Positions 22,959 through 44,081 of a DNA stretch of 64,000 bases are shown piece after piece. The stretch spans positions 38,616-102,615 of the forward strand of contig JBAROV010000088.1 of assembly GCA_049642465.1 (NCBI GenBank), in the 5' to 3' direction. This stretch comes from Vicinamibacterales bacterium. Its GTDB lineage: Bacteria; Acidobacteriota; Vicinamibacteria; Vicinamibacterales; 2-12-FULL-66-21. The first letter of the stretch is position 1. Every line of letters begins with the position of its first letter. The notes under the pieces were generated by a model. That model searched no databases. It had not been told where the DNA came from and saw only the letters and a list, made by a program, of their open reading frames with translations. The position numbers were made by a program, and so were the translations under genes.

Positions 22959-24248
22959 TCAGATCGTGACGCGTGCTTTCGTTTTGATGGCCTGGTTTGC
23001 GGCGATACACGCGCGCGCCGAGCCGATCGCTTTCTGCGGTCCGCACGCGAGCGGAGCGCCAACGCGAATCGCCGAGCAGAACCGTTGCATCTGGAACCGG
23101 GTTGCCGGCGGGCGAACGTTTGCCGAACTCGGTGCCGTTCCCGACGCGGCCCGTGCGGCGCCCTGGTTGGTGTTCGAGGCCATCGTCTCTGAGGTTTGCG
23201 CGACGGCGCCCATGCCGGCGGGTGTCACCTCAATGCCTGTTTGACGGCCGCCGCCCTCCTCGAAGAGCAACGCTTCGCGCTCGCGCAGCATGATGAGCGT
23301 GCCTTTGGTCCCGAAATACATCTCGTAGTAGTCGTCGAAGGCGTTCGATTCAATCGATGAGAAGACGGCGGTGCGTCCGCCGGGATACTCGAAGGTCACG
23401 TAGACGTGATCGAAGACCTCGCGGTTTTCGGGAAAGCGATACAGTCCGCCCGACGCGACGACCGCTTCGGGGGCTGACCCCAGAAACCAGTTCGCCGCGT
23501 TCACCTGATGGCTGCAGAGTTCCGCCATGAGCCCCTGCGAGTACTTCCAGTAGAGCCGCCAGTTGTACAGATGTTCGAATGTGGGATACCCCCATTTGGA
23601 CGGATCGTAGTCGGGCGTCGGTGGCTCTCCCTTGCGGCGCCAGCTGCCGTTGCGATGCCAGGCCAGACGCACGTGGTAAATCTCCCCGAGCGTGCCGTTC
23701 TTGATGATCCCGTCATAAGCGGCCTGATACATCGGGTTGTAGTTGCGCTGATACCCGATTTCGAGCACCTTGCGGTTCCGCTCGGCAGCCGCACGCATTC
23801 GCTCGCAGCCCTCGACGTCCCACGCCATCATCTTTTCGCACAGCACATGCTTGCCGGCTTCGAGGCACCCGGCAGCAAGATCGGCGTGCGCCCACAGCGG
23901 CGGCGCCATGATGACTGCCTCGACGTCTTCTTTCTGCAGCATCTCGCGCCAGTCGGAATAATGCCTGGCAGGGGGCTGTTCGTTTTTCGCGAGTACGGCG
24001 TCCGCGAGCTTCAGTTGCGCCGGATTGATATCGCACAGGGCACGCACCTCGCCGTATTTCGGATCGACGTTGCCCAGTTGCGCCCGTCCTTGCGATCCGA
24101 CGCCGATGAAGCCAATCCGCACGCGTCCACCCGGCATTGGCCCGCGCAGTCCGGCCGCCACGCCGAGCGCCGCGAGCGCCGGCGTTCCGGCCAGCGCCTT
24201 CAAGAAATTGCGGCGTCCCTGGTCCATTTGTTCGGGTGTCAGATTCAT
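22959..24248 (-). CDS. Gfo/Idh/MocA-family NAD(P)-dependent oxidoreductase with Tat signal peptide
   Basis: Start at ATG Met105 (MNLTPEQMDQGRRNFLKALAGTPALAALGVAAG twin-arginine). Rossmann GFIGVGSQG. Confidence 0.85.
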   Translation of the reverse strand: MNLTPEQMDQGRRNFLKALAGTPALAALGVAAGLRGPMPGGRVRIGFIGVGSQGRAQLGNVDPKYGEVRALCDINPAQLKLADAVLAKNEQPPARHYSDWREMLQKEDVEAVIMAPPLWAHADLAAGCLEAGKHVLCEKMMAWDVEGCERMRAAAERNRKVLEIGYQRNYNPMYQAAYDGIIKNGTLGEIYHVRLAWHRNGSWRRKGEPPTPDYDPSKWGYPTFEHLYNWRLYWKYSQGLMAELCSHQVNAANWFLGSAPEAVVASGGLYRFPENREVFDHVYVTFEYPGGRTAVFSSIESNAFDDYYEMYFGTKGTLIMLREREALLFEEGGGRQTGIEVTPAGMGAVAQTSETMASNTNQGAARAASGTAPSSANVRPPATRFQMQRFCSAIRVGAPLACGPQKAIGSARACIAANQAIKTKARVTI

Positions 24249-24784
24249 ACGGCTGCCTCTCGTGCGCGCACGTGTGCCAGCCGTGGGCGCATCCACAATT
24301 GATCGAGTCCTGCAATGGCGCCCGTGCGAAACGTCAAGAGCACGACGACCGCGCACGCCTCGATCAGGTTCTTGTTGACGATGAGATACGTTCCTTCCGC
24401 TCGCGCGTCGACCGATCCCATGGGAATCGATGAGAGGTAAAACATCGCCAGCAGGCCGAGCGCCCCGGTACAACCGGTCTGAGTGAGAAGACCCAGCATC
24501 AAGCTGAGTCCAACCGCTGCCAGCGCGAGTGCGATGAAGACATCGAAGGATCCAATCCACGACGCATTGCCAATCCAGTGAAAGATCGGCGCCAGCGGAC
24601 CGGTTGACGCTTTCAAGTACGCCGCGGACGACCAGGATGCGACGGGCGCACCATTCTGGCCCCAGGCTGGGTTGAGCAGCTTGGTATAGCCCTCATAGAG
24701 GAAGTGCCAGCCAATCAGCGTGCGCAGAATGACGAGCGCAAGCTGCTGAGCATTCGACAAGTGGATGGTGGACATGGTGCGCAA
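24245..24784 (-). CDS. DoxX-family membrane protein
   Basis: Four TM helices. 4-nt overlap with the downstream Gfo/Idh/MocA gene. Confidence 0.6.
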   Translation of the reverse strand: MRTMSTIHLSNAQQLALVILRTLIGWHFLYEGYTKLLNPAWGQNGAPVASWSSAAYLKASTGPLAPIFHWIGNASWIGSFDVFIALALAAVGLSLMLGLLTQTGCTGALGLLAMFYLSSIPMGSVDARAEGTYLIVNKNLIEACAVVVLLTFRTGAIAGLDQLWMRPRLAHVRAREAAV

Positions 24785-24792
24785 CTCGGTCG

Positions 24793-25815
24793 TTACAGCG
24801 TTTGCACGCGGGTTCCCAAGCGACTCCCCATCACGATCGGCCGCGTGGGGCCCTCATCTGGCGTGATCAACGCGAGCACATCGGGGTGTTCCTCGCAGTA
24901 CCGGCGAGCCATGTCGAGCCCACCGACGAAGATCGCCGTCGAAAGCGCATCGGCCGTAGCTGCCGTGGACGCGACAACCGTGGCGCTGAGGACGCCATGC
25001 GCCGGCCAGCCGGTTCGCGGATCGATGACGTGCCCATAGCGCCGGCCATCGGCAATAACGAACTGTTCTCCGCCGCCGCTCGTACCCACCGCCGCCTCCC
25101 GAACCCACAAACGGGCGAGCGCGCGGCCGGACACGAGCGGCGACACGAGATCGACTTGCCAGCCGCTGCCGCGGCCGCCAAGAGCAAGCAGGCTGCTGCG
25201 GCCGGCCGAGAGGAGCACGTGCTCAACTCCTGACCGTTTCAACCCGGTACTCACACGATCGAGTGCGTAACCCTTGCCGATCGCTCCGAAGTTGAGTTCG
25301 ATGCCGGGACGCTTGAAGCTGACGGTCCCGTCATCGCCATCGAGCTGCACCTCGTCCAGCCCGATCGATGCGCGGGCCGCGTCAATCGCGCTCGCGTCCG
25401 GGACGCGCCCTTCGCGTCGCAGGAATCCCCAACAACGGCTGAGTGGCGTCGAGGTGATATCGAATGCGCCGCCCGTGTCCGCGTGAAGCCGCTGACACAG
25501 GCTGAGGAGTTCGAACACGTGTGGCGGGACGGCAACGGGCTGCGACGCGGCGCATCGGTTCAGGATCGAGATCGTGCTCGTCTCCCGGAAGACGCTCAGT
25601 TCGGCCTCCAGCGCGTCGATTTCATCCAGCGCCGTCCGCGCTACCGGCACGAACGCGCTGTCCCGGGCGGCGAGCGTGATCTCGAACCGGCACGCCATTG
25701 CAAGACGATGGATCCGGATCCAGTAGCCGTGCGTGGTGGCGTCACCATCCCCCCGACCTCGCGAGAAAGCACGCAGAAAGTCGCGACGAGCGCTGGCCGT
25801 ATTAGTTGCCGGCAT
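24793..25815 (-). CDS. apbE: FAD:protein FMN transferase (ApbE family) with Tat-like signal
   Basis: ATG at Met50 (MPATNTASARRDFLRAF). ApbE motifs GAIGKGYALD and FVGG. Confidence 0.8.
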   Translation of the reverse strand: MPATNTASARRDFLRAFSRGRGDGDATTHGYWIRIHRLAMACRFEITLAARDSAFVPVARTALDEIDALEAELSVFRETSTISILNRCAASQPVAVPPHVFELLSLCQRLHADTGGAFDITSTPLSRCWGFLRREGRVPDASAIDAARASIGLDEVQLDGDDGTVSFKRPGIELNFGAIGKGYALDRVSTGLKRSGVEHVLLSAGRSSLLALGGRGSGWQVDLVSPLVSGRALARLWVREAAVGTSGGGEQFVIADGRRYGHVIDPRTGWPAHGVLSATVVASTAATADALSTAIFVGGLDMARRYCEEHPDVLALITPDEGPTRPIVMGSRLGTRVQTL

Positions 25816-25826
25816 TCGGGCCGTCT

Positions 25827-26381
25827 CTATGTCGTCTCGGGAATTGCATTGGGCACGAAGTCCACGATGAGACCGGCGTGCACGTCCCAGAGGATCAGAT
25901 CCCGGCCCACGAACCGATATTCCAGCTCCCGCGGTAACGGAGGCAGCGCGGCAAGCAGGCACGGCGGCATCATGGAGATGGATCGTCCCGCCGGATAATC
26001 GACATTGACCGCTGCGGGAATGTGCACGGAATTCTCGTCTTCAACGATGGCAAGGAGGTCATCGATGCCTCCTGCTTTCAGGCCGTCAGCGACGAGAATT
26101 CGGAAGTAACGGGCCATGGCCGGCGAAAAGATGTCCCCTTGCTGCGCATCGGCCCGTGCCGTGCGCATCGCTGCCGCGAGCGCGCGTTTCGAGGCGAAGA
26201 GCGCCGCCGGATCCCCGGTCACCACTTCAGGCGGCAGGGGCCCTTCCACCCTTCGGTGGAGCCCCACATACTCGTCAACGCGTTGAAGGAAGGTGTGGCG
26301 CATCGGATCGGTGGCTTCCTGACCCCCGACGGCCGTCGCCAGGCTCACAAACAGGAGAACAGCACCGTAGCGCATACGCAC
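25827..26381 (-). CDS. Secreted hypothetical protein
   Basis: Signal peptide. First gene of the ApbE-DoxX-oxidoreductase operon. Confidence 0.45.
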   Translation of the reverse strand: MRMRYGAVLLFVSLATAVGGQEATDPMRHTFLQRVDEYVGLHRRVEGPLPPEVVTGDPAALFASKRALAAAMRTARADAQQGDIFSPAMARYFRILVADGLKAGGIDDLLAIVEDENSVHIPAAVNVDYPAGRSISMMPPCLLAALPPLPRELEYRFVGRDLILWDVHAGLIVDFVPNAIPETT

Positions 26382-26593: not shown

Positions 26594-27457
26594 ATGCCGA
26601 AACTTGCCGCCGCGCTGCTGTCGGGCGCACTGGTCGTCTCCTGGGCGTCTCCGTCCTTCACGGTCGCCCCGCTCCCGAACCTCGCTGGAACCGTCAAGTT
26701 TGCGGTGATTGGGGACAACGGGACAGGCGACGCCGCGCAGTACGAAGTCGCGGATCAGATGTCTCGTTTCCGTCAGCAGTTTCCGTTCGATTTGGTCCTG
26801 ATGATGGGAGACAACTTCTACGGCGCACAGCGGCCGTCAGATCTCATCGCCAAGTTCGAGCGCCCGTACAAGGCGCTGCTCGAGGCGGGCGTGAGATTTC
26901 AGGCTGCGCTCGGCAACCACGACGAGCTGGACTCGGTGAACTACCCCCCGCTCAACATGGGCGGGCAGCGCTACTACTCGTTCGTACGCGGAAACGTCCG
27001 CTTCTTTGTGTTGGACACCAATTCCCTGGATCCCAAGCAGCTGCAGTGGATGGAAACGGCGCTCCAGAGCTCGCGCGACGAGTGGAAGATCGCGTACTTC
27101 CATCACCCGCTCTATAGCCATGCGGGCCGTCATGGCGATGCGATTGATATCCGGTTGCGGCTCGAACCGTTGTTGATCCAGTACGGGGTCGGTGTGGTCT
27201 TCTCGGGACACGATCATATCTACGAGCGCCTGAAGCCGCAGAAGGGGATCACCTATTTCGTGTGTGGTTCGGGGGGCAAGCTGCGAAAAGGCGACCTGGA
27301 GCGGTCAGAGCAGACCGCGGCCGGTTTCGACCAGGATCAGGCGTTTACGCTCGTCGAAGTTGCGTCCGACGAACTCCACTTCGAGACTATCTCGCGCGCG
27401 GGAAAGACTGTGGATACCGGCACCATCCGCCGCAACGCGTCGCGCGCGGGAACCTGA
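26594..27457 (+). CDS. Calcineurin-like metallophosphoesterase, secreted
   Basis: Signal peptide. Metal motifs GDNG, GDNFY, GNHD, HHP, GHDH. Confidence 0.8.
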   Translation: MPKLAAALLSGALVVSWASPSFTVAPLPNLAGTVKFAVIGDNGTGDAAQYEVADQMSRFRQQFPFDLVLMMGDNFYGAQRPSDLIAKFERPYKALLEAGVRFQAALGNHDELDSVNYPPLNMGGQRYYSFVRGNVRFFVLDTNSLDPKQLQWMETALQSSRDEWKIAYFHHPLYSHAGRHGDAIDIRLRLEPLLIQYGVGVVFSGHDHIYERLKPQKGITYFVCGSGGKLRKGDLERSEQTAAGFDQDQAFTLVEVASDELHFETISRAGKTVDTGTIRRNASRAGT

Positions 27458-27469: not shown

Positions 27470-28648
27470 ATGAAAGCCGTCGCCGTAATGGACCACCCCA
27501 CGAGTCGCACCGGAGCCAGCAGGTTCCCGCAACTCTGGCGCTTCGCCATGGAGTATCTTTTCGCACTCCCGATTGGCGCCGGGTTCGCCCTCATCTGGGC
27601 CAACGCGGATGCCGAAACGTACTACCGTTTCGTCGACGCATCGGCCGTCATCGTCAACGACGTCGCGATGGTGCTGTTCTTCGCGCTCATTACGAAAGAG
27701 ATCGTCGAAGCGACGGCACCGGGTGGGGTCCTGCATACCTGGCGGCAGGCGGCCATGCCGGTGCTGGCCTCGGTTGGTATCGTTACGGTTCCGGTCGTGC
27801 TTTTCGCGTTGCTCGTCCGCGTCTTCGACGAACCCATGCTCGTCCGCGGCTGGACGACGGTGATGCCCATAGACATTGCACTGGGGTACTTCACCGCGCG
27901 GATTATTTTCGGGCGGCACGCGGCGATACCGTTCTTCCTTCTGCTCGCCATCAGCGCGAACGGCCTCGGGTTCATCGCGCTGGCGATCGTCGATCCCCTT
28001 CATGAGGTACGACTTGGCGTGGCCGTGCCGCTCATGCTCGCGGCCGTGGCATCGGCGCTCGTCTTTCGTCAATGGAAGGTGAAGAGCTTCTGGCCGTATG
28101 TGATTGTCGGGGGCGGATTGTCCTGGACCGCGCTCTTTTTTGGCGGGTTTCATCCGGCGCTTGCGCTGCTTCCAATCGTGCCATTCCTGCCACACGCCGC
28201 ACGCGATCCGGGCTTTTTCGTGGACGCCCCGGCCAGCGCTCCTGATGCGCTCAACCGATTGGAGCTGTGGTTCAGACATCCGGCGCAGGCTGCGCTGTTT
28301 TGTTTCGGACTGGTCAACGCAGGCGTTCATTTCAAGGCACTCGAGCCTGGTTTCTGGAGTCTGCCGCTCGCCGCATTCGTCGGTAAACCCCTCGGTCTCA
28401 TCGCCGGCATCGCACTCGGGACGGCCGTGGGCTTCCACTTGCCGCGCGGTGTCCACTGGCGCGATTTGATCCCGTTGGGATTCATCAGCGGCACCGGCTT
28501 TACGATGTCGCTGTTCTTCGCCACCGCAACGATTGGCCCGGGGCAGATGCTCACGGAGCTGAAGATGGGTGCGATCCTGAGCGTGGGCGCGTGCCTCATC
28601 GCGATCGCGGTCGGGCGATGGCTGCGAGGCCCCAGGTTCGGGCGTTGA
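27470..28648 (+). CDS. nhaA: Na+/H+ antiporter NhaA
   Basis: ~390 aa. 11-12 TM polytopic with NhaA-like conserved segments. GAGGA RBS. Confidence 0.8.
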   Translation: MKAVAVMDHPTSRTGASRFPQLWRFAMEYLFALPIGAGFALIWANADAETYYRFVDASAVIVNDVAMVLFFALITKEIVEATAPGGVLHTWRQAAMPVLASVGIVTVPVVLFALLVRVFDEPMLVRGWTTVMPIDIALGYFTARIIFGRHAAIPFFLLLAISANGLGFIALAIVDPLHEVRLGVAVPLMLAAVASALVFRQWKVKSFWPYVIVGGGLSWTALFFGGFHPALALLPIVPFLPHAARDPGFFVDAPASAPDALNRLELWFRHPAQAALFCFGLVNAGVHFKALEPGFWSLPLAAFVGKPLGLIAGIALGTAVGFHLPRGVHWRDLIPLGFISGTGFTMSLFFATATIGPGQMLTELKMGAILSVGACLIAIAVGRWLRGPRFGR

Positions 28649-28923: not shown

Positions 28924-29026
28924 GACGTATCGGACGCGCTGTAGCCCTCGGGCCCGCGACAAGCGAACAGAAACCTCGTGACGGACGTTCAGCCAAAAGG
29001 CTAGAGTGTTCCTCGAGGAGGACTAT

Positions 29027-29230
29027 ATGGCGATTCATAAAGTCATCGAGGTGATCTCGCAATCAGAGAAGAGCTGGGAGGACGCGGCTCAACGCGCCGT
29101 CAAAGACGCCAGCCGTACCGTCGAAAATATCAGGTCGATCTGGGTCAAAAACTTCGAAGCGGTCGTCAAGAACAACGCCATCGTCGAATATCGGGTGAAC
29201 GCGAAGATCACGTTCGAAGTCAAAGGGTAA
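29027..29230 (+). CDS. Dodecin-family flavin-binding protein
   Basis: GAGGAGGA RBS. 68 aa. Pattern IHKVIEVISQSEKSWEDAAQRAVKDA...VEYRVNAKITFEV typical of dodecins. Confidence 0.65.
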   Translation: MAIHKVIEVISQSEKSWEDAAQRAVKDASRTVENIRSIWVKNFEAVVKNNAIVEYRVNAKITFEVKG

Positions 29231-29248: not shown

Positions 29249-29701
29249 ATGCCGTTTACGCTGCGGAGCGTAGCCTTCCAAGATGGCGGACTGATCCCGC
29301 GTGAGTTCACGTGCGACGGCGGCGATCGGACGCCGGCGTTGACATGGGTCGATGCGCCCGAGGGCACGCGTAGCTTCGTGCTGATCATGGATGACCCCGA
29401 TGCTCCGAGTGGCACGTTCACTCACTGGCTCGCGTACGACATTCCTGCCAGCGCAACGGAACTAGCCGACCGGCCGCCCGGCAAGACGCTGCCAAACGAC
29501 TTCGGGCGCGCGGGGTACGGCGGCCCATGTCCTCCGCGTGGCCACGGACCGCACCGTTATTTCTTCACCCTCCATGCGGTCGACCTACCGACGTTGAGCG
29601 TCCAGGGCAAGACACGAGCGGCGCTCGAGCGCGCGCTCGACGGTCACACCTTGGGCGCGGCGCGCCTCATGGGCCGCTTCGAGCGGAAAGGCGATCGCTG
29701 A
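29249..29701 (+). CDS. YbhB/YbcL-family PEBP (Raf-kinase-inhibitor-like) protein
   Basis: DPDAP and GPCPPRGHGPHRY signature motifs. Confidence 0.85.
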   Translation: MPFTLRSVAFQDGGLIPREFTCDGGDRTPALTWVDAPEGTRSFVLIMDDPDAPSGTFTHWLAYDIPASATELADRPPGKTLPNDFGRAGYGGPCPPRGHGPHRYFFTLHAVDLPTLSVQGKTRAALERALDGHTLGAARLMGRFERKGDR

Positions 29702-29722: not shown

Positions 29723-30733
29723 TCAGTATGAATGGTGCCGTGCGATTTCTTCCCTGCTGAGACGGAGAAACCGCGCGGCGTTGTTATAGAAGATGTCCCG
29801 CTTCTGCTGTTTCGATAGAAATGGCGCCTCGTCGATGACGGCAATGGCGCGCTCGATCGCCCCGGGCCACACCATCTGATCCGATCCAAACATGACCCGG
29901 CCGCCGAACCCGGACTCCAGGATCCTCTGCAGGTATCGATAGAACGCGGCGCGGGGCTGGGTGTAGACGATCACGCCAATATCGACGTGGACCTGAGGGT
30001 GAGCGTACAGGACCGCCAGCAAATCGTCGATCATCGGATAACCGGCGTGCATGATGTAAACGCGTAGCTTCGGGTGTTTGACGACCACGTCCTCGAGCGT
30101 GAAGGCACTGTGCATGCGCGCGCGATACTGCCTGGCTCCCAGGTAGACCGCCCCTGGTGGTCCGGTACCGATATGAATTCCGACCGGGATATCGAGTTCT
30201 TCGGCCAGCGCCCAGTAGGGCTCCATGCGTGGATCGTCCGGGAGAATGCCGACATACTGGTTCGTCACCTCACCGAGCACTTGCACGGCTCCTCTGGCGT
30301 GCATCGCACGAAGCGCCTCAGGAGACGGCGTCTCCTTGCCACCGAGCTGGAAGGCCAAGGCCGGGATGAAGCGACGCGGGTTCGCCTTCGTCCAGGTGGC
30401 TACCCGTACGGCATCTCCGCTGAGCACGCCAATGATGTTGCGCCGCTCGGCGATCGCCAGCGTCTGGTTCATGACCTCATCGTCTGTCACTGGCGACCAA
30501 ATCGGGTCGGGGCACGGCGGTTTCTTGAACCTGGCGATGAATGCCTCGGTGTAGGGCGCCTTCGGATCCCACGCGAGATACTCAGGAATTGGTGTGCACA
30601 TGCCGAGTGGCGGCGGCCCCTGCTCATCGGCGGCGAGTGCGTGCATGTGGACATCGATGATCGGGTCGCGTTGCTGCGCCACGAGGGGTGGCCAACAGAG
30701 AGCGACCAGCACGGCAAGCAATACGCCTCTCAT
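29723..30733 (-). CDS. Amidohydrolase-2-family metal-dependent hydrolase, secreted
   Basis: Signal peptide. N-terminal IIDVHMHAL (HxH). MFGSDQMVWP C-terminal motif. Confidence 0.75.
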   Translation of the reverse strand: MRGVLLAVLVALCWPPLVAQQRDPIIDVHMHALAADEQGPPPLGMCTPIPEYLAWDPKAPYTEAFIARFKKPPCPDPIWSPVTDDEVMNQTLAIAERRNIIGVLSGDAVRVATWTKANPRRFIPALAFQLGGKETPSPEALRAMHARGAVQVLGEVTNQYVGILPDDPRMEPYWALAEELDIPVGIHIGTGPPGAVYLGARQYRARMHSAFTLEDVVVKHPKLRVYIMHAGYPMIDDLLAVLYAHPQVHVDIGVIVYTQPRAAFYRYLQRILESGFGGRVMFGSDQMVWPGAIERAIAVIDEAPFLSKQQKRDIFYNNAARFLRLSREEIARHHSY

Positions 30734-30758
30734 GGCCGGACAGTATAGGGTCATAGGG

Positions 30759-32342
30759 TCAACTGTCCTTCACGGTGGGCGCCATGCCGGTGCGCTCGAG
30801 GAGACGCAGGACGTCATCGCGACTGGCTTCCAGCTTCGACGCGGAAGCCAGAACGTCGTCGGCGACCACCGGGTACCAGGACCCGCGTCCGTTATCGAGC
30901 AGGCCGGCGATATCGAACGGCTCGATCGCGCGATCGATGCGCGCCTCCAGCGACCGCCGCGCATCACGGCTGGGTAACGAGGCAGCGAGCAGCGAACAGG
31001 CGGTCAACTCGCGCCCGAAGGTCGGATGCTCGCGCAGCAGAAAACCCGGCGCGAGATCCGCCCGCCCGAGCCTGCGGGCCGCTTCGCTGAAACTCGCCGC
31101 GGCAAAATACAGCAGGCTCAGTCGCTTGAATAGCGCCGGATCGTTCATCGTCGCGTAGAGCGCGGCGACGAGTTGCTCGGTGACGTCGAGTTCCGCCAGG
31201 GTTGTCTTTTCGTACCTTTCGAGCGCGGCCTCGCGCTCTTGGCCCGGTGAGGTACGCTCGAGGAGATCGACCAGCCGGATGATGCCCAGAAGAGTCAGTG
31301 GAAAGCCGGTCGAGAGTAACGGATCGATGACTCCGGCGGCCGATGGCAGAAGCGCCCACGATGAGCCAGCCACCCGCGCACTCCGAAACGCCAGCCGGGA
31401 CGCGTGAACGAACGGCAGCGCGGCTCGGGCCGTGCGGAATTGATCGGCCACGGACGGCAGCGCCGTCAGCAGGCGATCCCACGCGATCTCTCCTTCAGCG
31501 GCGCCAAATTCGGCCGCAGTGCGATCGGTCAACGCCGCTCCCGCACTGGTCAATCCGTTGTTGAAGCGAAGGACCCAAATCCATCCGCCTGGGAATACAT
31601 GATGGACGGCCGCGTCATCTATCGGGTATGGCGGCAAAGCCGCTGAGGGCCGGAGTCGATCCCAGCGTTCGACACCGTCGAAATGCGTGTAGAGACCCTG
31701 AGTTGCCGGGAGCCAGCGCCCTGGCGCCTGTCCGAGTCCCAATTCGCGGTGGAGAAACCCTCGCGGTCCGCTGGCGTCAATCACGAATCGCGCCGTGATG
31801 CGAACCGACTTGCCCTCCCGGTCCCCGTCAAGAATCGAGGACTCACCCTCATGACGAATGCCTGTGAGTCGCGTCTGATCGAGGTACACCGCGCCTTCAC
31901 GTTGCGCTTCTTCCGCAAGCGCTTGATCGAACTGCGGCCGATACCAGTGCATGTCTGCAATTTCGTCGTGCGGACTGGCTGCCACCATCAACTGACGTTC
32001 GCGATTGCGATCGTCTTCGAACGCGGCACCGGGCTGGTGGAAGAAGAAGGTGAACCCGCGCTTTAAACCGCACGCGACGTCCGGCCGCGCGCGCTGCCAT
32101 GTCCCCCACTTCGAGAACGGTCGGATTCTCGGCAGGTCGTATTGGTCGGCCAGTTCTTCAATCAAAAGATTGGCGAGCGGTGTGGACGATTCGCCGATTG
32201 CAAACCGCGGATGACGACCGCGTTCCACGAGCGCGACGCGACGGCCACGCTTGAGAAGGGCAAGCGTCGTGAGCGACCCGGCGAAACCCGAGCCAATCAC
32301 CGCGACGTCAGCATCCACCCGGGCAACAGGAATCAGCGGCAT
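30759..32342 (-). CDS. FAD-dependent oxidoreductase of the tryptophan-halogenase-like fold
   Basis: GSGFAGS dinucleotide motif. AIGESSTP. Partial halogenase signature GGWIWVLRF (GWxWxIP not fully conserved). ATG overlaps the stop of the radical SAM gene (TGATG). Confidence 0.7.
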   Translation of the reverse strand: MPLIPVARVDADVAVIGSGFAGSLTTLALLKRGRRVALVERGRHPRFAIGESSTPLANLLIEELADQYDLPRIRPFSKWGTWQRARPDVACGLKRGFTFFFHQPGAAFEDDRNRERQLMVAASPHDEIADMHWYRPQFDQALAEEAQREGAVYLDQTRLTGIRHEGESSILDGDREGKSVRITARFVIDASGPRGFLHRELGLGQAPGRWLPATQGLYTHFDGVERWDRLRPSAALPPYPIDDAAVHHVFPGGWIWVLRFNNGLTSAGAALTDRTAAEFGAAEGEIAWDRLLTALPSVADQFRTARAALPFVHASRLAFRSARVAGSSWALLPSAAGVIDPLLSTGFPLTLLGIIRLVDLLERTSPGQEREAALERYEKTTLAELDVTEQLVAALYATMNDPALFKRLSLLYFAAASFSEAARRLGRADLAPGFLLREHPTFGRELTACSLLAASLPSRDARRSLEARIDRAIEPFDIAGLLDNGRGSWYPVVADDVLASASKLEASRDDVLRLLERTGMAPTVKDS

Positions 32343-33334
32343 CAGCGATCGCCATGACCGCAGACGGTGCAAGCTCGCGGTGGAAGGATTTGCTGCATCA
32401 GATTCATCTCGCGAAGTCGTTCGGCACGCTCAGTTAGGCAACACGGGCAGTGAGCGAAGCGATCGATATCCCAGAGATCCACGAAGACTCGACCGCGCCC
32501 GCGCGCGTGGCCGAGGCTCAACGCCAGGTTCCGCTCGATGTCGTCCAGATTCGGCGTCGTGAAGGCGTCTTGGTCCAAAGCCTCCAAAGTGCCATTGCCA
32601 GATCGCGTCGGCACGAGGGAGATCACCGAGGCGCCGCAATCGAACGCTGTATCAAGCGACCGCATCAACCAGACATCCTGCTCATCATGCGGAACAAACG
32701 GTGGTGAGAGAAGAAGGAACACCCGCAACGACACTCCACGGTCCAGCAGCGCCGCTGCAGCTGCTGCGAACTGCTCGGGCGTGACGTGCTTGTTCAGACG
32801 CTCGAGCGCCACGGGATGCGCGGTTTCCAGGCCCATCGCGACTTCGAACGCTGGCCTCGTGTGCCGATCGAGCGCCGCCATGAAGCGATCGACGCGAGGA
32901 CCTACCAGCGCGGGATGTGATTCGACGACGACCCGGGACAGTCCGGCCAGCGCCCCGGCCACGGCGTCGTAATCTGCTTCGGGTACTGCGCGCGGATCAA
33001 AAAAACTCCCGGCATTGTAAAGCTTCATTCCCGAGACAGCGCCGTGGTCGGCACCGAGCGCCTGTCGCGCAGCGGATACTTGCGCGGGAATGGCGCCGCG
33101 CGGGGTGTCACTTTCGATTGTGTACGTCCAGAGATCGCACATCGCGCAGCGCCAGGGACACTCGCGACCGGTCAGGAGCACCGTTGCCATCCGAGCGACG
33201 GCTCCCTGCTCCGTTCGCTCGTCTTCGGTAATGAGACCCTGATAGCGCCAGGGATCGTGTTGAGGACGAGCCCCTCGGCGCTCGAGCACGAAGCGATCGC
33301 GCGCTGACGGAGTACTCGGATAGAGCGTCGTCAT
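32342..33334 (-). CDS. Radical SAM enzyme (CX3CX2C), additional C-terminal Cys cluster
   Basis: LLTGRECPWRCAMCDLW. C-terminal HCPCC...CTVCGHG. ATG at Met7 of the track ORF. Confidence 0.7.
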   Translation of the reverse strand: MTTLYPSTPSARDRFVLERRGARPQHDPWRYQGLITEDERTEQGAVARMATVLLTGRECPWRCAMCDLWTYTIESDTPRGAIPAQVSAARQALGADHGAVSGMKLYNAGSFFDPRAVPEADYDAVAGALAGLSRVVVESHPALVGPRVDRFMAALDRHTRPAFEVAMGLETAHPVALERLNKHVTPEQFAAAAAALLDRGVSLRVFLLLSPPFVPHDEQDVWLMRSLDTAFDCGASVISLVPTRSGNGTLEALDQDAFTTPNLDDIERNLALSLGHARGRGRVFVDLWDIDRFAHCPCCLTERAERLREMNLMQQILPPRACTVCGHGDR

Positions 33335-33358
33335 GCTCTGCCGCACGCGCAACTGCGA

Positions 33359-34690
33359 TCACGCATACAGATGCTCGAACGCGTGGCGGTATTCGCGCGC
33401 CGATCGTCCGAGTCTGTGCTGCATCGAATCAATCGAGGTCGCACCGTGCTGGAAACGGCGCTTCGGAAACACCGGCATTTCGATGCCTGTGACCCCCCTG
33501 ATACCGCGGCGAACGATTTCCCCCTTCAGCGAGTACAACCTCGCGACGTCGTAGTTTGTGAGCTCCGCAAACGGGATCCCTTCCGCAACTTCGACGACGT
33601 TGGGGCGGGTGTACGGACTGAAGCCGGCGAATCCGTAGCGCATCGCGGGCGCATAGGTCCTGACATAGCTCCGGCTGAGACCGCCACTATAGGTGAGCGA
33701 GTGCTTGATCCGTCCGACGCCCCATCCTTCCTGATAAAGCATCAGGTTGTTGACGACGCTGCGAATCGTCAGCTCGGGATTTTCCTCGATCGGATAATCC
33801 TTGAGGTTCTCGTCCCCGCCGTCGCCGTCGGCAAGATGACGCCATTCGGGATAGCGCTCGCGAATCCCCTGGCACAAGCGAAGCCCCATGGCTGCGCACT
33901 CGACGTCAAGACTTTTGTAGTCCTCGATGACACGAAGCGTCGCTTCAGCGTCGAGGTCGTCCGGGCTTCCAGGGATCTCTTCAAGAAACATCGACAGCCC
34001 CACCGCCGATAGAAAGGCGCGCGCCTGCCTAACGTCTGGCCCATCCCCCAGATCCAGCACGAATGCCTTCAGCCGCGCGGGTGACAGGCCGAGACGCAAC
34101 ATCGTGTGATACGTGACGAGGAACACGGATCCGCTGTCGATACCGCCCGAGAAACTGACGCCGATCGGTTCGGGCCGCAGAGAACCCGAATCGATGCTGA
34201 TGAGCCATTTCGCGATCTCATCAGTCAGCGCCCCGATATAGCGGCGCCCGATTTCGTCCAGGTCGGCGGGCAGCGCTCCTCGAGATGGCGTGAAGAAACG
34301 CGTGTACGTGGGATCCGGATCCGGACAGCCCACCAACGCCAGCTCTACGATGTAGTGCGCGGGGACCATGCGGGTGTAACTCGGATGAAACTGGTCGCCG
34401 AGCCCGGCGTCCTGGAGTGCGCGCTGCAAGGTGTCGATTCGGTCCGACACGAACAGCGCCGGCCCCTCGTGCCGCTTGGCGAGGAAGTACCGCATCGGAC
34501 GATCCATCGAGCGCGCCAGCCGCACGGTGATGCCATCGACCGCGACCAGCGCAAACGATCCGTCGATGGCGCGTACCGCTCTCGGGTCACCGGAGAGGAC
34601 GCGGCGCCTGGCTTCGTCGATATCGCAGTTGTGGATCTGGTTCAGCTTCGGGTCGAGCAGGTCGACCACTCGTGCGATCGGACTTGGCAT
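33359..34690 (-). CDS. Asparagine-synthetase / beta-lactam-synthetase-like ATP-dependent amidoligase with degenerate (Cys-less) N-terminal glutaminase-like domain
   Basis: PP-loop SFSGGIDSGS. N-terminal DGSFALVAVD...RDRxG-like pattern but no Cys2 nucleophile. Confidence 0.75.
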   Translation of the reverse strand: MPSPIARVVDLLDPKLNQIHNCDIDEARRRVLSGDPRAVRAIDGSFALVAVDGITVRLARSMDRPMRYFLAKRHEGPALFVSDRIDTLQRALQDAGLGDQFHPSYTRMVPAHYIVELALVGCPDPDPTYTRFFTPSRGALPADLDEIGRRYIGALTDEIAKWLISIDSGSLRPEPIGVSFSGGIDSGSVFLVTYHTMLRLGLSPARLKAFVLDLGDGPDVRQARAFLSAVGLSMFLEEIPGSPDDLDAEATLRVIEDYKSLDVECAAMGLRLCQGIRERYPEWRHLADGDGGDENLKDYPIEENPELTIRSVVNNLMLYQEGWGVGRIKHSLTYSGGLSRSYVRTYAPAMRYGFAGFSPYTRPNVVEVAEGIPFAELTNYDVARLYSLKGEIVRRGIRGVTGIEMPVFPKRRFQHGATSIDSMQHRLGRSAREYRHAFEHLYA

Positions 34691-34714
34691 TCGGTCATTC
34701 TAGGACAATGCCGG

Positions 34715-35440
34715 TCAACGCAAATACTGCGTGAACCAGCGCGCGGCCAGTCGCTCTACCTCCTCGAGCGCTCCCGGCTCTTCGAAGAGGTGTGTGGCGC
34801 CTGGAACGATGGCGAGTTCAACCGGCGCCTGCATCTGCCGCAAGGCGGTCCGATTCAGCTCGATGACCTCGTCGTCTTGGCCACCCACGATGAGCAGCGT
34901 TGGCGCTTTGACGCGCGGCAACGCGTCGCCCGCCAGATCGGGACGTCCGCCCCTCGACACCACCGCGCCGATCGTGTCCGGCCGCTCCGCGGCGGCGATC
35001 AATGCCGCGGCCGCTCCGGTGCTCGCGCCGAAACAGCCGATCGGCAGCTGCCGCAGACCGGTCTGACGGCGAGCCCAGTCGGCGGCGGCGCTGACCCGCG
35101 GCGCGAGGCGAGCAATATCGAAGCGATACTGCCGTGTCCGCACGTCGACCGCTTCTTCCCGCGGCGTGAGCAGGTCCATCAGCAGCGTCGCGAACCCTCG
35201 CCCGTTGAGCGATTCCGCAACATGGCGGTTTCGCGTGCTGAAGCGGCTGCTGCCGCTGCCGTGCGCGAAGACGATCAGACCACGGGCATCTGGCGGCACG
35301 CGCAGGTCGCCGCTCACCGCGGCGCCGCCAGCTGCAATTTCCACAGGCTGAACAGTGATCGTACTCACAGTCAGACGCTTTCGTGTTACGGCACGACGAC
35401 GAGTCGATCGTCGACGTTTCTCACGCCCGGCGCCGCCCAC
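34715..35440 (-). CDS. Dienelactone-hydrolase-family alpha/beta hydrolase
   Basis: GxSxG-type nucleophile elbow CFGASTGAAAAL. DLH-like HGSGS. True start uncertain (possibly GTG at 35367), since the track ORF overlaps the upstream BON gene by 54 nt. Confidence 0.65.
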   Translation of the reverse strand: MGGAGREKRRRSTRRRAVTRKRLTVSTITVQPVEIAAGGAAVSGDLRVPPDARGLIVFAHGSGSSRFSTRNRHVAESLNGRGFATLLMDLLTPREEAVDVRTRQYRFDIARLAPRVSAAADWARRQTGLRQLPIGCFGASTGAAAALIAAAERPDTIGAVVSRGGRPDLAGDALPRVKAPTLLIVGGQDDEVIELNRTALRQMQAPVELAIVPGATHLFEEPGALEEVERLAARWFTQYLR

Positions 35441-36036
35441 GCCGCTCGGCGGGCCTCGTCACGTTCGAACCACGCATGCACGTTACCGGTGAGCGTGACT
35501 TTCCCGTCGACGACCGCCACATTGATCCGGCGCGCGTCAACTTCGGCGCTGCGCTTCAAGGCCGCCTCGATCTTCGTCTTGACATCCGCCGCGCTGACGT
35601 GCGGCTCCACGAAGATGCTGTTCGTGACGCCACGAACGCCGATGAGGTCCCGGACCGCACTTTCGGCCGTGGTACGCTGGTATTGCCAATCCACGCGTCC
35701 CTTCAGCGTCACCCAGCCGTCGCTGACGGACACGGAGATCTTCTCCTCCGGGACGAGCGTGTTCCACTTGAGTGCGGACAGAACGGATTGGGCGATCTCC
35801 GAGTCCGTCCGTTGCTGTCCGCCAGCGAGATGCACCTCGAGCTCGTTGGCCACCGCTTTCACCCCATACACACCCAGCGCCACACGCTCGGCGGTGCCTC
35901 TCTCTGAGTAGCTCTTGACGTCGCCGCGGAGCGTGACAACGCCTGTATCCACCGAGACTCCGATATCCGCTGCGTCGATGCTGGGCTCCCAGTCCAGAGC
36001 ATCCTGGACGTACTCTTGTAGTTGTCTGTCGGTCAT
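35386..36036 (-). CDS. BON-domain (OsmY-like) protein, three BON repeats
   Basis: GGGAGGA RBS immediately before ATG at 36036 (Met11 of the track ORF). Repeated VxVxxGxVTLxGxVxS BON pattern. Confidence 0.75.
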   Translation of the reverse strand: MTDRQLQEYVQDALDWEPSIDAADIGVSVDTGVVTLRGDVKSYSERGTAERVALGVYGVKAVANELEVHLAGGQQRTDSEIAQSVLSALKWNTLVPEEKISVSVSDGWVTLKGRVDWQYQRTTAESAVRDLIGVRGVTNSIFVEPHVSAADVKTKIEAALKRSAEVDARRINVAVVDGKVTLTGNVHAWFERDEARRAAWAAPGVRNVDDRLVVVP

Positions 36037-39172: not shown

Positions 39173-41542
39173 TTAGCTTCCAAGCAGCCGACTCCCGCCC
39201 GCTTCGTCGAACGCACTGAGCGCCAGGCGACGACCTTCCTCCGCGTCGGCGAGGAGTGCCTGGAACTCCGGGCGTTCGCGAAGCGCGTCGAACTCGGGAC
39301 GCTCGGAAAGCGTCGCGGCCACGAAGTACCCTTTCGATACCGCCCTGCGAAGGTAATCGAACCCTTGCTCGTACTGGCCCGCGTCGCAGAGCAGCCATCC
39401 CTGTTGGAAGTTCGCCTCCGGATCCTCCCGGATTTTGAGATGACCGAGCGAAGCGTCCACGAACATGTCCGCGGGACGTCGATCGAGCCACGCCGTCAGG
39501 TAATCCGTCCACGATCGAAAAACGGGAATGCGTGAACTCCCACGCATGGCGACCAGCATCCGGCGCGCCTCCTCTCGGCGTCCCGACAGTCCGAGGCCAA
39601 TCACCCGAATCCCATCATCTGCCCCGGCGACGACCAGCGGCATTTCGATGGCCACCAGGCTCTCGATGTCGCCAGTCATCAGCAGCGTTTGATCCAGACT
39701 GGTTTGGACGTTTGGATCCAGACGCCGAGCCTCGGCGTGCGCAGCGATGGCTTGGTCAAAGAGACCGCAATATCGGCACGCGTGCACGAGCCCGGCAAAG
39801 AGCTCCGCATCGTTGCCGTGACGGTTGGCCTCTCCGAGGAGGCGCACCATCGCGTGCGTGGCCCGCCCGGTGTCGGCCTCGAGGTTCGCGTAGTACTTGT
39901 GCGCGAGCGACAGGCGTGGATTGAGTTCGAGTGCGCGTCGGAAAGCTTCCTCCGCCTGTCGCTCGGTGTCCGTGGATCCGTCGATGTACTTACCAATCAC
40001 ACGGTGACAGCGACCAAGATGGGCCCACGCCGGCGCGAAACGCGGATCAAGCTCGAGACATCGCTCGTACAGGTCGCGCGCCCGTGCGAGGCCGTCGTAG
40101 GTGCGCGCCAGTTCGTTCCCCCGGAGATAAAGCTCGTACGCGCGAGCGTCGTGCGGCACGTCCGGCCTTGGCGACGGCAATCCCCTCGTCAACGCGAGCG
40201 AGAGCGTTTCCACCACTCGGCGGCTGATGTCGTCCTGCAGCTGAAAGAGGTCTCCCATCGATGACTGAACCGTGTGCGATGTCAGGAGCGTCCCGCTCGG
40301 GGCTTCGACGAGCTGCGCCGACACGCGCAGCTGCCCGCCGGCGCGGAGGAGCGTCCCCATGACCACACGATCCACGTCGGCGTCCGCAGCCAGTGCTTTC
40401 AGATCCGGCGTGTCCCCGGCGAAGCGCGCGGCCGACGCGCTGGAACGCACGATCAACGATTCGATGCCCGAGAGCGATCCGGCGATTGCGTCTGGCAGGC
40501 TGAACGCCAGGAAATCCGCCTCATCGTCTGGACGCAGGACTCGAAACGGCAGCACCACGATTCGCGTCAACGGTTGCGCAAGCGCCACCATATCGGTGCC
40601 CGAAGCGCTGCGAACACCACGCAGCTCCGCGGCCATTTCATCGGCTGACGCCCAGCGATCGGCGGGGCGCTTCGCCAGCGCGCGCCGGATCACACGATCC
40701 ACCGCCGTGATCGCAGGAGAGCCGGTGAGCGCCGGGGGCTGCTGATGAACTGTTGCGTGCAGAACGTCGATCACCGTATGACCGCCAAAGGCCGGTCGGC
40801 CTGCAAGCATTTCGAACAGAATCGCCCCTACCGCGAACAGATCGCTTTTCGCGTCCGCTGTCTCGCCCGTTACTTGCTCGGGCGCCATGTATCTCGGCGT
40901 TCCCACGACGATGCCGGAACGAGTCAAGCCAACCGTCGTAGCCATCGAGTCTTCCAGTTGCGGCCGCGCGAGCCCAAAGTCGAGGAGCTTCACACCGTAG
41001 GGGGTGACGAAGATGTTCGAGGGTTTCAGATCGCGGTGGACGATGCCGTGCGCGTGCAATGCGGAGAGGGCGGCGAGTATCTCGAGCGCAATCGACACGA
41101 CCTGAGGCGCGCTCATCGGTCCATGCCGCAGCTGGTCGGCCAACGGCTGGCCGCTCAGCAGTTCCATCGCGATGAACAGCTCGGCCTCGTCTTCGCCTAT
41201 CTCGTAAATCTGACAGATATTCGGATGGTTCACGCGAGCAGCCGCTCTCGCCTCACGCCAGAACCGGCTGCGCGACGTCTCGTCGGTTGCCATTGCCGAC
41301 ATCGTCTTCAACGCTACTGCGCGGTCGAGCCGTTCGTCATGCGCTTCGTAGACGACGCCCATGCCGCCCTGTCCTAGCTTGCGGGTGATGGTGTAGCGGC
41401 CGATACGCGATGGCAGACCCGCCTGGCGCGTGATGTCCGGCGCCTGCGACGGATCCGCAATCGGCGTTTCGCGCGTCAGCTCGTCCCCGGGTGGCGATTG
41501 CGGCTGAGGCTCCGGCGTATCATCAGCGAACTTGGAGGCCAC
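39173..41542 (-). CDS. Eukaryotic-like Ser/Thr protein kinase with C-terminal TPR-repeat domain
   Basis: GQGGMGVVYEA, VALK, HRDLKPSN, DFGLA, APE motifs. C-terminal half with TPR-like repeats. GTG start. Confidence 0.9.
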   Translation of the reverse strand: MASKFADDTPEPQPQSPPGDELTRETPIADPSQAPDITRQAGLPSRIGRYTITRKLGQGGMGVVYEAHDERLDRAVALKTMSAMATDETSRSRFWREARAAARVNHPNICQIYEIGEDEAELFIAMELLSGQPLADQLRHGPMSAPQVVSIALEILAALSALHAHGIVHRDLKPSNIFVTPYGVKLLDFGLARPQLEDSMATTVGLTRSGIVVGTPRYMAPEQVTGETADAKSDLFAVGAILFEMLAGRPAFGGHTVIDVLHATVHQQPPALTGSPAITAVDRVIRRALAKRPADRWASADEMAAELRGVRSASGTDMVALAQPLTRIVVLPFRVLRPDDEADFLAFSLPDAIAGSLSGIESLIVRSSASAARFAGDTPDLKALAADADVDRVVMGTLLRAGGQLRVSAQLVEAPSGTLLTSHTVQSSMGDLFQLQDDISRRVVETLSLALTRGLPSPRPDVPHDARAYELYLRGNELARTYDGLARARDLYERCLELDPRFAPAWAHLGRCHRVIGKYIDGSTDTERQAEEAFRRALELNPRLSLAHKYYANLEADTGRATHAMVRLLGEANRHGNDAELFAGLVHACRYCGLFDQAIAAHAEARRLDPNVQTSLDQTLLMTGDIESLVAIEMPLVVAGADDGIRVIGLGLSGRREEARRMLVAMRGSSRIPVFRSWTDYLTAWLDRRPADMFVDASLGHLKIREDPEANFQQGWLLCDAGQYEQGFDYLRRAVSKGYFVAATLSERPEFDALRERPEFQALLADAEEGRRLALSAFDEAGGSRLLGS

Positions 41543-41642: not shown

Positions 41643-44081
41643 TCACTGGCTCCGAAGTGTTGCCATCGCGTCGACGCGTGTCGCTCGCCGGGCAGGCAAA
41701 TATGATGCAACCGCGGCAGTTGCCATCAACAGCAGCGCCGCGCCACCAATCGTCAACGGATCGAGAGGGTCGACTTCGAACAGCATGCCCCGTAGTAGAC
41801 GACTGGTCATCGTTGCCCCGATCAGTCCGATCGTCGCGCCGAGACCGGCCAGCCGGACGGCCTCGGCCAGCACGAAACGACGTACGCGACTCGCCGTAGC
41901 TCCCAAGGCGAGCCGCACGGCAATTTCGCGATCTCGCTGGCGCACATACGCCGCCATCACCGCATAGAGGCCAACCGTCACTAATAACAGCGCCGAGACG
42001 CCAAAGATGGTGAGGAGGAACGCGGTGAACCGGGGGCGCGCGAGCGGAGGACCGAGGAGTTCGGTCAACGGCACCACTCGCATGACTCGCACGGCGGGAT
42101 CGACGGCCTCGATTCGCTCGCGGCCGGCCGGACCCACAAGTTCGATTGGCGCGGTGGTTCTGAGAACGAGCGTCGTGGCTGTCATTTGAAACTGCGCCGC
42201 AGGGAGATAGAGCGTCGAGCGCGGGCTCGTGAGTTCGCGATAGCGCGTGGGTGCGGCGACGCCGACGATCGTGTACCACGGGTCTCGGGAGTTCGGGCGG
42301 CCCATCGTCAGCCGCTTACCGAGCGGGTCCTGCCCGGGCCACGTCCGTGCCGCAACATCTTCACTGACGATCGCGACCGGCAAGGCGCCGGCGCGATCGG
42401 CTGACGTAAACGGCCGTCCGCGCACAACCGCGACCTCGAACGTCTCGAAGTAGTTTGGATGCACGGACTCGAGGTCGAGCCACGGATTCACAGCAGCCTC
42501 CGCCTCACTCTGTCCGTCGGCCGCAAACCGTGGAAGGTCCCACCCCTGACCAGAGAATGGGGCGATGTTCACCGGCGTCGCAGCCACGGTGCCAGGGACA
42601 CGTGCGAGCTGAGCCATCACATCATCCAGAAACTGCGCGTGCGCACGAGGTTCGGAGTACTTCCCCTGCGGCAGATAAAGCTCAAACAGCACGAGACCGT
42701 CCGCGCGCAGTCCGAGGTTGACCGACTGCAACCTGAGAACACTTTGGATCAGCAGTCCCGCGCCTGCGACAATCGTCACGGCAAAACCGACTTGCGCGAC
42801 AACGAGTGACCGACGCCCATGCGTTGCGACCGAGCCGGCCGCGTCACCGCCCCCACCTCGCAGATGAGAGAACACGTCCGTTGGCAGGGACAGCAGCGCG
42901 GGTATGAGGCCGGCCAGGAGCGCCGTGACGAATACGACGGCAACCGAGAACAACACGACCATGGCGTCGATGCGGACCGACTCCACACGGGGTAAACCGT
43001 CGGGCACGAGGCTGATGAGGGCCTGGAGGCTCCACCAGACGGCTACAAATCCGACGATGCCGGCCTGCGCCGCGAGCACCAGGCTTTCGGCTAACACCTG
43101 CCGCACGATTCGGCCGCGTGCCGCCCCGAGTGCCAGGCGGACGGCGAGTTCCCGCCGACGCGCCTCGCCACGCATCAACAGAAGATTCGCCACATTGGCG
43201 CTGGCAATCAGCAGCACGACTGCGACAGCGGTGCAAAGCGCGTAGATCGGCGTCTGAATGTCGCCGACGACCGCGTCTGCGAAGGAGCGCACCACGGGAG
43301 TGAGCCCGCGAATCACACCGGGTGGCGCTTGCGAATCCAGCCGCTCGCTCAACGCACGGATTTCGCTCGTCGCCTGATCAAGCGTCGTTCCGCGTCGAAG
43401 CCTCGCAATGAGGTTGACCTCCCGGCGTGCGGCGTCCCCGAAGGGGCCGGTCGTCGGGACGGAGCTCGTCGTTCGCCACACTTCGACCCCAGCGGGGTAA
43501 TCGAGATCCGGTGGCATGACGCCGACAATCGTGAAGGGCTGTTCATCCAGACTCACACGACGGCCCAGAATGTCGTGTAATGCACCGTAGCGGCGTCGCC
43601 ACAGCCCACTGCTCAACACGATCACCCCCTCAGCCCCATCCTTGTCATCGGAACGGGTGAGCGCGCGCCCAAGCAGAGGCCGCACGCCCAGCACGTCGAA
43701 GAAGCCACCAGTGACGAGTGCAACGTCCGCATAACTCGAGACACCGTGATCGGCCATGACCGAGCGCCCGACGCCATTGCGCGTGACGCCGGCAGCGTTC
43801 TCGAGCAGTCGGCTCGCGTCTGCGACCGATTCGATCTCGGTATTGCCGAATGGATAGCGCGCCGAACCAGCAGATGAGAGCTCCTTCCACGCAACGATCA
43901 GACGGTCCTGCTCGTGCACGGGAAGCGGCCGAAGAAGCACGCCTTGAATCAGCGCGAACATCACGGTCGTGCCGGCAATGCCCAACGCGAGCGTCGCGAT
44001 CGCCGCTCCCGTGAAGGCCTTGGCGCGCCATAGACCGCGGCAGGCGAGACGAAAATCCTGGGTCACGCTTTCAAGGGTCAT
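41643..44081 (-). CDS. ADOP-family (MacB-like, duplicated FtsX) ABC transporter permease
   Basis: ATG at Met78 (MTLESVTQDFRLACRGLWRAKAFT, typical ADOP N-terminus). Two FtsX domains. ~810 aa. Confidence 0.85.
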   Translation of the reverse strand: MTLESVTQDFRLACRGLWRAKAFTGAAIATLALGIAGTTVMFALIQGVLLRPLPVHEQDRLIVAWKELSSAGSARYPFGNTEIESVADASRLLENAAGVTRNGVGRSVMADHGVSSYADVALVTGGFFDVLGVRPLLGRALTRSDDKDGAEGVIVLSSGLWRRRYGALHDILGRRVSLDEQPFTIVGVMPPDLDYPAGVEVWRTTSSVPTTGPFGDAARREVNLIARLRRGTTLDQATSEIRALSERLDSQAPPGVIRGLTPVVRSFADAVVGDIQTPIYALCTAVAVVLLIASANVANLLLMRGEARRRELAVRLALGAARGRIVRQVLAESLVLAAQAGIVGFVAVWWSLQALISLVPDGLPRVESVRIDAMVVLFSVAVVFVTALLAGLIPALLSLPTDVFSHLRGGGGDAAGSVATHGRRSLVVAQVGFAVTIVAGAGLLIQSVLRLQSVNLGLRADGLVLFELYLPQGKYSEPRAHAQFLDDVMAQLARVPGTVAATPVNIAPFSGQGWDLPRFAADGQSEAEAAVNPWLDLESVHPNYFETFEVAVVRGRPFTSADRAGALPVAIVSEDVAARTWPGQDPLGKRLTMGRPNSRDPWYTIVGVAAPTRYRELTSPRSTLYLPAAQFQMTATTLVLRTTAPIELVGPAGRERIEAVDPAVRVMRVVPLTELLGPPLARPRFTAFLLTIFGVSALLLVTVGLYAVMAAYVRQRDREIAVRLALGATASRVRRFVLAEAVRLAGLGATIGLIGATMTSRLLRGMLFEVDPLDPLTIGGAALLLMATAAVASYLPARRATRVDAMATLRSQ

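Follow-up and report, generated by a model that had tools for sequence, protein, structure and literature searches.

A recurrent three-gene cassette encoding an AsnB-like ligase, a RaSEA/MnmL-like radical SAM protein and a halogenase-fold flavoenzyme in Acidobacteriota and other bacterial phyla

A three-gene cassette encoding an AsnB-like ligase (AsnBL), a radical S-adenosylmethionine protein (rSAM) and a halogenase-fold flavoenzyme is described here from the metagenome-assembled genome (MAG) of a soil bacterium of Vicinamibacterales (Acidobacteriota). The closest described systems include the ArcS-RaSEA pair of Euryarchaeota. RaSEA converts preQ0-lysine in tRNA to archaeosine, and its partner ArcS takes its nitrogen from lysine, not from NH4+, Asn or Gln, and shows activity only when complexed with RaSEA (PMC11298593). 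Lysine thus serves as the nitrogen donor, and the radical enzyme then removes its carbon skeleton. A second relative, MnmL/YhcC, converts cmnm5s2U to nm5s2U with removal of the glycine-derived carboxymethyl group (bioRxiv 10.64898/2026.05.18.725915). Both characterised relatives of rSAM therefore strip an amino-acid-derived N-substituent and leave a primary amidine or amine.

The stretch of DNA analysed, hereafter the window, is 64 kb long and carries the cassette on its minus strand. One genome per GTDB species was scanned, giving more than 584 loci that encode AsnBL relatives. The best 80 of these were retrieved and searched by tblastn with all six proteins of the region listed below. The usual order was AsnBL, rSAM, flavoenzyme, the three genes being co-oriented and a few bases apart, and AsnBL and rSAM were often translationally coupled. 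The presence of rSAM and flavoenzyme was counted only for loci with sufficient downstream sequence. The flavoenzyme followed the AsnBL-rSAM pair in 26/26 informative Acidobacteriota loci; in the group comprising Verrucomicrobiota and others, rSAM followed AsnBL in 18/42 loci and the flavoenzyme followed in 14/38. The triad was also present in Abditibacteriaceae (locus L036), Pirellulaceae (L084) and a Thermoanaerobaculia-type contig (L086). The AsnBL-rSAM pair occurred without the flavoenzyme in Calditrichota (L087) and in L089, where the third position was occupied by a 451-aa c-type cytochrome domain protein (L089:12433-13788) with a CxxCH heme-binding domain (TIGR02603, E 5e-24). Because the same order and orientation recur in dozens of genomes from several phyla, the three-gene core goes far beyond chance adjacency, and the real unit is a co-inherited AsnBL/rSAM/flavoenzyme cassette. 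It is widely distributed, uncharacterised and built from divergent members of known superfamilies.

We propose, with a probability of roughly 35%, that these enzymes form a cytoplasmic cassette that makes or tailors one product by glutamine-independent amidation and ring halogenation or hydroxylation. AsnBL would adenylate a substrate carboxylate through its intact PP-loop and couple it to an amine, for which an amino acid's amino group is the most plausible candidate, to yield an N-substituted amide; the amine would not be glutamine-derived ammonia, since the glutaminase nucleophile is absent. The RaSEA/MnmL-like rSAM, probably bound to AsnBL as RaSEA is to ArcS, would then remove the carbon skeleton of the donor by radical N-dealkylation to leave a primary amide. 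Taken together, these two steps would constitute a glutamine-independent amidation following the logic of lysine-dependent archaeosine formation. The flavoenzyme, of the PltM/CtcP clade, would act on an electron-rich ring in that molecule, by halogenation or possibly by hydroxylation. As the substrate, a small molecule or cofactor is preferred to a ribosomal peptide.

The region was re-translated, and six ORFs (open reading frames) were identified on the minus strand:

35386-36036/36066, minus strand: BON protein with three BON domains, OsmY-like (Pfam BON, E 4e-54)
34715-35440, minus strand: dienelactone-hydrolase-type (DLH) alpha/beta hydrolase (Pfam DLH)
33359-34690, minus strand: AsnBL, a PP-loop ligase of 443 aa (Pfam Asn_synthase)
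32342-33334 (ATG at 33334), minus strand: RaSEA/MnmL-like rSAM of 330 aa (TIGR01210, E 2.4e-22)
30759-32342, minus strand: halogenase-fold flavoenzyme, 527 aa from the ATG overlapping the rSAM stop (Pfam Trp_halogenase at 54 bits, and DAO)
29723-30733 (longer ORF to 30754), minus strand: Amidohydro_2 protein with an N-terminal signal-peptide-like segment (Pfam E 7e-45)

Alternative starts exist for rSAM (GTG at 33346 according to NCBI; longest ORF from 33352), and the longest ORF of the flavoenzyme reaches 32372. The AsnB-like protein of the window is 100% identical to the NCBI entry 'asparagine synthase-related protein [Vicinamibacterales bacterium]'. Gaps of 24 nt separate DLH from AsnBL and AsnBL from the rSAM ATG at 33334. 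The rSAM stop and flavoenzyme start overlap as TGATG (context GCTGATGCC), and 25 nt lie between the flavoenzyme and the amidohydrolase ATG at 30733. All six ORFs, these spacings and the motifs SFSGGIDSG, CPWRCAMC, CPCC...CTVC, GSGFAG and WIWVLR agree with a preliminary description of the locus, as does the assignment of the amidohydrolase as a secreted-type enzyme. A 601-aa ORF on the plus strand (34106-35911) lies antisense to AsnBL, DLH and BON. We regard it as a shadow ORF, of the sort that GC-rich DNA produces, and not as a gene; shadow ORFs of this kind gave spurious clusters during the neighbour analysis.

The same description had treated the six genes as one operon, with DLH, BON and the secreted amidohydrolase in the same pathway. 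That model has in its favour the shared strand, the tight spacing and the lack of a convincing internal terminator in the window; terminator-like sites found in the region by a consensus scan were in no excess over shuffled sequence. Base composition was uniform over the region. However, none of the three flanking genes lay beside AsnBL in any of the 80 related loci searched by tblastn (0/80) or near it in 9 further loci, and, unlike the cytoplasmic core enzymes, the amidohydrolase has a signal peptide. The six-gene pathway is accordingly very unlikely indeed: because they stand beside the cassette in 0/80 related loci, BON, DLH and the amidohydrolase are local neighbours outside the pathway. 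The other part of the earlier proposal, that the AsnB-like, radical SAM and halogenase-fold genes belong together, is borne out by their recurrent order across several phyla.

AsnBL has the two-domain fold of the AsnB superfamily (class B synthetases) with the SGGxDS PP-loop in its C-terminal domain (SFSGGIDSG, 34130-34156), together with the motifs DGDGGDE (residues 288-294) and KRRFQHG (residues 410-416). The AlphaFold model was based on an alignment that included relatives of 44-65% identity. Pfam Asn_synthase was matched weakly but above cutoff (25.2 bits, cutoff 21). The N-terminus reads MPSPIARV, and so AsnBL, as first noted, lacks the Cys2 nucleophile of the N-terminal nucleophile (Ntn) glutaminase domain; homologues lack it likewise. 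This absence and a TIGR01536 (AsnB) score of 24.5 bits, against a cutoff of 267.1, rule out a true AsnB. The likeness to Cys-less beta-lactam synthetases that had been pointed out holds at the level of the fold. To the non-canonical superfamily members beta-lactam synthetase, CarA and TsnB9 the sequence relation is marginal; in profile comparison beta-lactam synthetase and CarA gave E 0.068 and 0.42, and AsnB/ASNS were better at 1e-10. The locus has no clavam or carbapenem genes, the neighbours being instead rSAM and the halogenase-fold enzyme, and a carbapenem or clavam system was rejected on these absent partners and E values. The family is compact and distinct (772 matches among 1.84 billion cluster representatives). 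No domain fusions of AsnBL were found; long matches were frameshifted or carried no extra Pfam domain.

The radical SAM core of rSAM contains the CX3CX2C motif as CPWRCAMC (33137-33160), and CPWRCxMC is invariant in the family. Residues 43-256, which form this core, are the region matching TIGR01210 (RaSEA). TIGR01210 was the best NCBIfam match in 20/20 diverse family members (best E 1.6e-34, all below cutoff), and MnmL/YtqA (TIGR01212) was also matched by 7/20 (best E 4e-6). Pfam Radical_SAM scored 22.9 bits, below its cutoff of 29.5. By sequence, rSAM is placed in the RaSEA/MnmL clade, a membership that the preliminary description had missed and that is the most helpful pointer to a mechanism; MoaA was ruled out by scores and motifs, and no related solved structure was found by sequence or profile search. 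The second, C-terminal Cys cluster of the preliminary description is real: it has the form CX2C-X22-CX2C (32360-32449), and its cysteines are conserved in 87-96% of the family, three being near-invariant and the fourth present in 87%. It is not a SPASM domain, since no Pfam or NCBIfam SPASM match was obtained and the motif is not of the 7-Cys type.

Like ArcS-RaSEA, the cassette thus pairs a substrate-activating enzyme with a TIGR01210-type radical SAM protein. The partner here, however, is an AsnB-fold PP-loop ligase and not a TGT/PUA-type ArcS, and the cassette is bacterial. The rSAM has an extra conserved N-terminal segment in addition to the C-terminal Cys motif, no tgt or preQ0 genes lie near the cassette, and a halogenase-fold enzyme is attached. 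Queuosine or archaeosine biosynthesis proper was therefore rejected, its defining partners or domains being absent. MnmL/YtqA/YhcC is likewise a related radical SAM enzyme that removes an amino-acid-derived N-substituent, but the match is weak, and MnmL acts on tRNA without an AsnB-like partner.

The flavoenzyme retains the tryptophan-halogenase fold with an imperfect GWxWxIP, as had been described. Its best solved relatives are the phenolic flavin-dependent halogenases PltM (6bzt, E 3.7e-46) and CtcP (7xgb, E 7e-46), matched over about 400 residues; PltA, CmlS and others were well behind. The GxGxxG motif (GSGFAG, 32277-32294), GESSTP and DPLLSTG are conserved, the last corresponding to the DPLxSxG segment shared with PltM/CtcP. 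A catalytic-type Lys (ACGLKRGF; codon 32061-32063; K104 in the numbering of the longest ORF) does not vary among the orthologues (45/45). It is aligned with the Lys residues in ACGIKLGF of PltM and SHGQKSNF of CtcP, and we take this Lys to be the catalytic residue. The cassette family differs from PltM/CtcP in having WxWxLR/K throughout and its own conserved C-terminal 110 residues, and no flavin reductase, carrier protein or polyketide genes lie near the cassette. UbiH was ruled out by scores and motifs.

The best NCBIfam match of the flavoenzyme was QhpG (E 4.7e-20), with GoxB and LodB also listed. This match bears on a further explanation, that the cassette matures a ribosomal peptide or a protein-derived cofactor encoded elsewhere, either in the manner of QhpD/QhpG or by a lasso-type lactam. 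Lasso peptides are cyclised by AsnB-like enzymes, and maturation of quinohemoprotein amine dehydrogenase (QHNDH) similarly combines a radical SAM protein, QhpD, with a flavoenzyme of the same superfamily, QhpG. Against this, the QhpG score was 71.9 bits with a cutoff of 240, and PltM/CtcP were far better matches; GoxB and LodB scored 45 and 38 bits, each with a cutoff of 400, so that the flavoenzyme does not reach any of these maturase families. The rSAM is not SPASM-type, and the cassette has no small-subunit gene, protease or exporter of the QHNDH kind. It also lacks an RRE (RiPP recognition element)/PqqD domain and a leader protease. Around the cassette in about 55 loci, a search for small conserved ORFs at distances up to 1.5 kb gave only alternate-frame shadows of neighbouring genes, in agreement with the earlier failure to see a precursor peptide. 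A lasso peptide cyclase was rejected on the absence of the leader protease (B), of RRE domains (Pfam) and of any such small ORF, and PQQ (pyrroloquinoline quinone)- or SPASM-type systems for ribosomally synthesised peptides that are modified after translation (RiPPs) were rejected on absent partners or domains.

The most frequent neighbour of AsnBL in the retrieved flanks was a secreted FG-GAP/UnbV_ASPIC protein, with or without TPR, present in 42/78 loci and within 3.5 kb in 25 of them; these counts are raw, not set against the background density of paralogues, and the strength of the link is thus uncalibrated. Examples are:

L025:6046-7788, FG-GAP/UnbV_ASPIC
L030:3829-5652, FG-GAP/UnbV_ASPIC
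L087:1-2726, FG-GAP/UnbV_ASPIC
L089:3754-9077, FG-GAP/UnbV_ASPIC
L082:14848-20093, FG-GAP/UnbV_ASPIC

In Verrucomicrobiota without rSAM and flavoenzyme, this gene lies directly upstream of AsnBL on the same strand and adjoins a LytS/LytTR-type two-component pair. In L087 and L089 it belongs to the same operon as AsnBL-rSAM. An RnfD/NqrB-like membrane protein was found near the cassette in 23 loci. A block encoding a His-rich protein of four transmembrane segments (4-TM), a YtkA/FixH-like protein, a NapH/MauN-type polyferredoxin and an N-terminal-His protein, in which His comes first in the predicted mature N-terminus, was found in 9-14 loci of Acidobacteriota and Opitutaceae in differing arrangements:

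L082:6661-9986 and L082:14000-14851, accessory block; similar in L002, L006, L008-L010, L016, L042, L055 and L081

The L082 block encodes a 64-aa membrane peptide, the His-rich 4-TM protein (no Pfam match), the YtkA/FixH-like protein, the NapH/MauN-type polyferredoxin, a 189-aa protein in which HSGPPFP comes after the signal peptide, and an RnfD/NqrB-like protein of 283 aa. The block resembles a membrane redox module or one for copper handling. No FG-GAP/ASPIC, RnfD-like or polyferredoxin-block genes were found in the 64-kb window, and these partners were accordingly out of reach of the preliminary description.

The FG-GAP/ASPIC and membrane redox partners suggest that the product of the cassette acts in the envelope. 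More speculatively, the cassette could provide the cytoplasmic biosynthesis for a hitherto undescribed system of redox or metal handling in the envelope. It would make a new cofactor, either an aromatic amide bearing a halogen or hydroxyl group or a quinone-like one derived from a protein, by glutamine-independent ligate-then-radical-dealkylate amidation; we regard this as a long shot. The same surroundings (FG-GAP proteins, the NapH/MauN-type ferredoxin and, in one locus, cytochrome c) are reminiscent of mau/qhp clusters and so lend something to the maturation of a peptide or protein-derived cofactor considered above. The FG-GAP/ASPIC partners, however, have Sec or lipoprotein-type signal peptides and not Tat ones, and on balance that explanation appears improbable.

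Several observations weigh against the proposed amidation and ring-tailoring pathway. The TIGR01210 score of rSAM, 79.6 bits, is well short of the curated cutoff (212.15), and the partner gene is AsnB-like where RaSEA has ArcS. The flavoenzyme departs from WxWxIP: the window protein has WIWVLR (31566-31583) and 45 orthologues have W[IV]W[VI]L[RK], with both Trp retained and Ile-Pro replaced. It appears from its sequence to have most hallmarks of a halogenase, and whether it would halogenate or hydroxylate is uncertain. No transporter, regulator or flavin reductase was conserved with the cassette. AsnBL was found without adjacent rSAM or flavoenzyme in many Verrucomicrobiota and Armatimonadota, and for this reason it may act alone, for example with free ammonia. 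All of the chemical steps set out above are inferred from family resemblance. Finally, AsnBL is 63-83% identical between Acidobacteriota and Verrucomicrobiota, far above its two operon partners, which is unusual for an enzyme of secondary metabolism or tailoring, and the characterised relatives of rSAM both act on tRNA and not on small molecules.

The last two points bear equally on the possibility that the target of the cassette is macromolecular, for example a nucleoside of tRNA or rRNA. In that case a carboxylate or oxo group of the nucleoside would be activated by AsnBL, rSAM would trim the resulting adduct and the flavoenzyme would oxidise it. RaSEA and MnmL/YhcC, the sole characterised rSAM relatives, are tRNA-modifying enzymes, the cross-phylum conservation of AsnBL is on a par with that of translation factors, and no accessory genes of the kind found in biosynthetic gene clusters, no precursor and no exporter are conserved. 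A macromolecular substrate is nevertheless judged unlikely, if worth keeping in view, and amidation and ring tailoring of one small product is retained as the preferred reading.

No RRE, protease, carrier protein or exporter was found to be conserved with the cassette. The window and 9 loci were searched for Rfam elements or riboswitches upstream of the cassette and none was found. PADLOC anti-phage defence models gave no match for the three cassette proteins, and a defence system was rejected accordingly. No plasmid-borne copies were found. No curated family model was found for AsnBL or rSAM, and full-text literature searches returned no published description of the cassette. The preliminary description had likewise been unable to match the combination to a characterised pathway, and none was found here among characterised pathways, curated families or the literature. 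It had also named circumstances that would speak against a unit, namely core genes of unrelated housekeeping families that fail to co-occur elsewhere; the three proteins are not true AsnB, MoaA or UbiH, and their genes do co-occur.

Several hundred species or more carry the cassette, in phyla that are abundant in soil and freshwater (Acidobacteriota, Verrucomicrobiota, Planctomycetota and others). Its product, which may be halogenated, could for this reason be a metabolite or cofactor of wide occurrence in the environment. If the proposed chemistry is true, the logic of an amino acid as nitrogen donor, seen in archaeal tRNA, would also apply to the formation of carboxamides in bacteria, and two families would gain a function: the compact, very strongly conserved AsnB-like one and a bacterial radical SAM family that resembles RaSEA. 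The association with FG-GAP/UnbV_ASPIC proteins provides a first handle on this large family, for which no characterised bacterial function was found.

Other features of the window were annotated. Genes for dodecin (29006-29230) and a PEBP-family protein (29249-29701) on the plus strand converge on the amidohydrolase, and beyond them lie an NhaA-type antiporter (27470-28648) and a metallophosphoesterase (26594-27457). An ApbE flavin transferase (24793-25962, minus strand) adjoins a GFO/IDH/MocA oxidoreductase (22959-24560, minus strand). Two large Ser/Thr protein kinases (39173-41542 and 45518-48307, minus strand), one with TPR and one with PD40 beta-propeller repeats, are interleaved with MacB/FtsX-type permeases (41643-44312 and 59480-62233). 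A 1056-aa protein (51316-54486, plus strand) has PSCyt1/PSCyt2/PSD1 and Laminin_G_3 domains; the former families bear the name 'Planctomycete cytochrome C', and the MAG is acidobacterial. A cyclic di-AMP (c-di-AMP) riboswitch (Rfam RF00379, 60.7 bits; 58375-58537, minus strand) lies directly upstream of an ORF (56414-58372) whose 652-aa product has an SPFH/Band 7 domain. Among the related loci, a SECIS_3 element (74.3 bits) was found at L086:16203-16261 (plus strand), where Molybdop_Fe4S4 and Molybdopterin ORFs meet, suggesting that the gene caller split a selenocysteine gene of the formate-dehydrogenase type.

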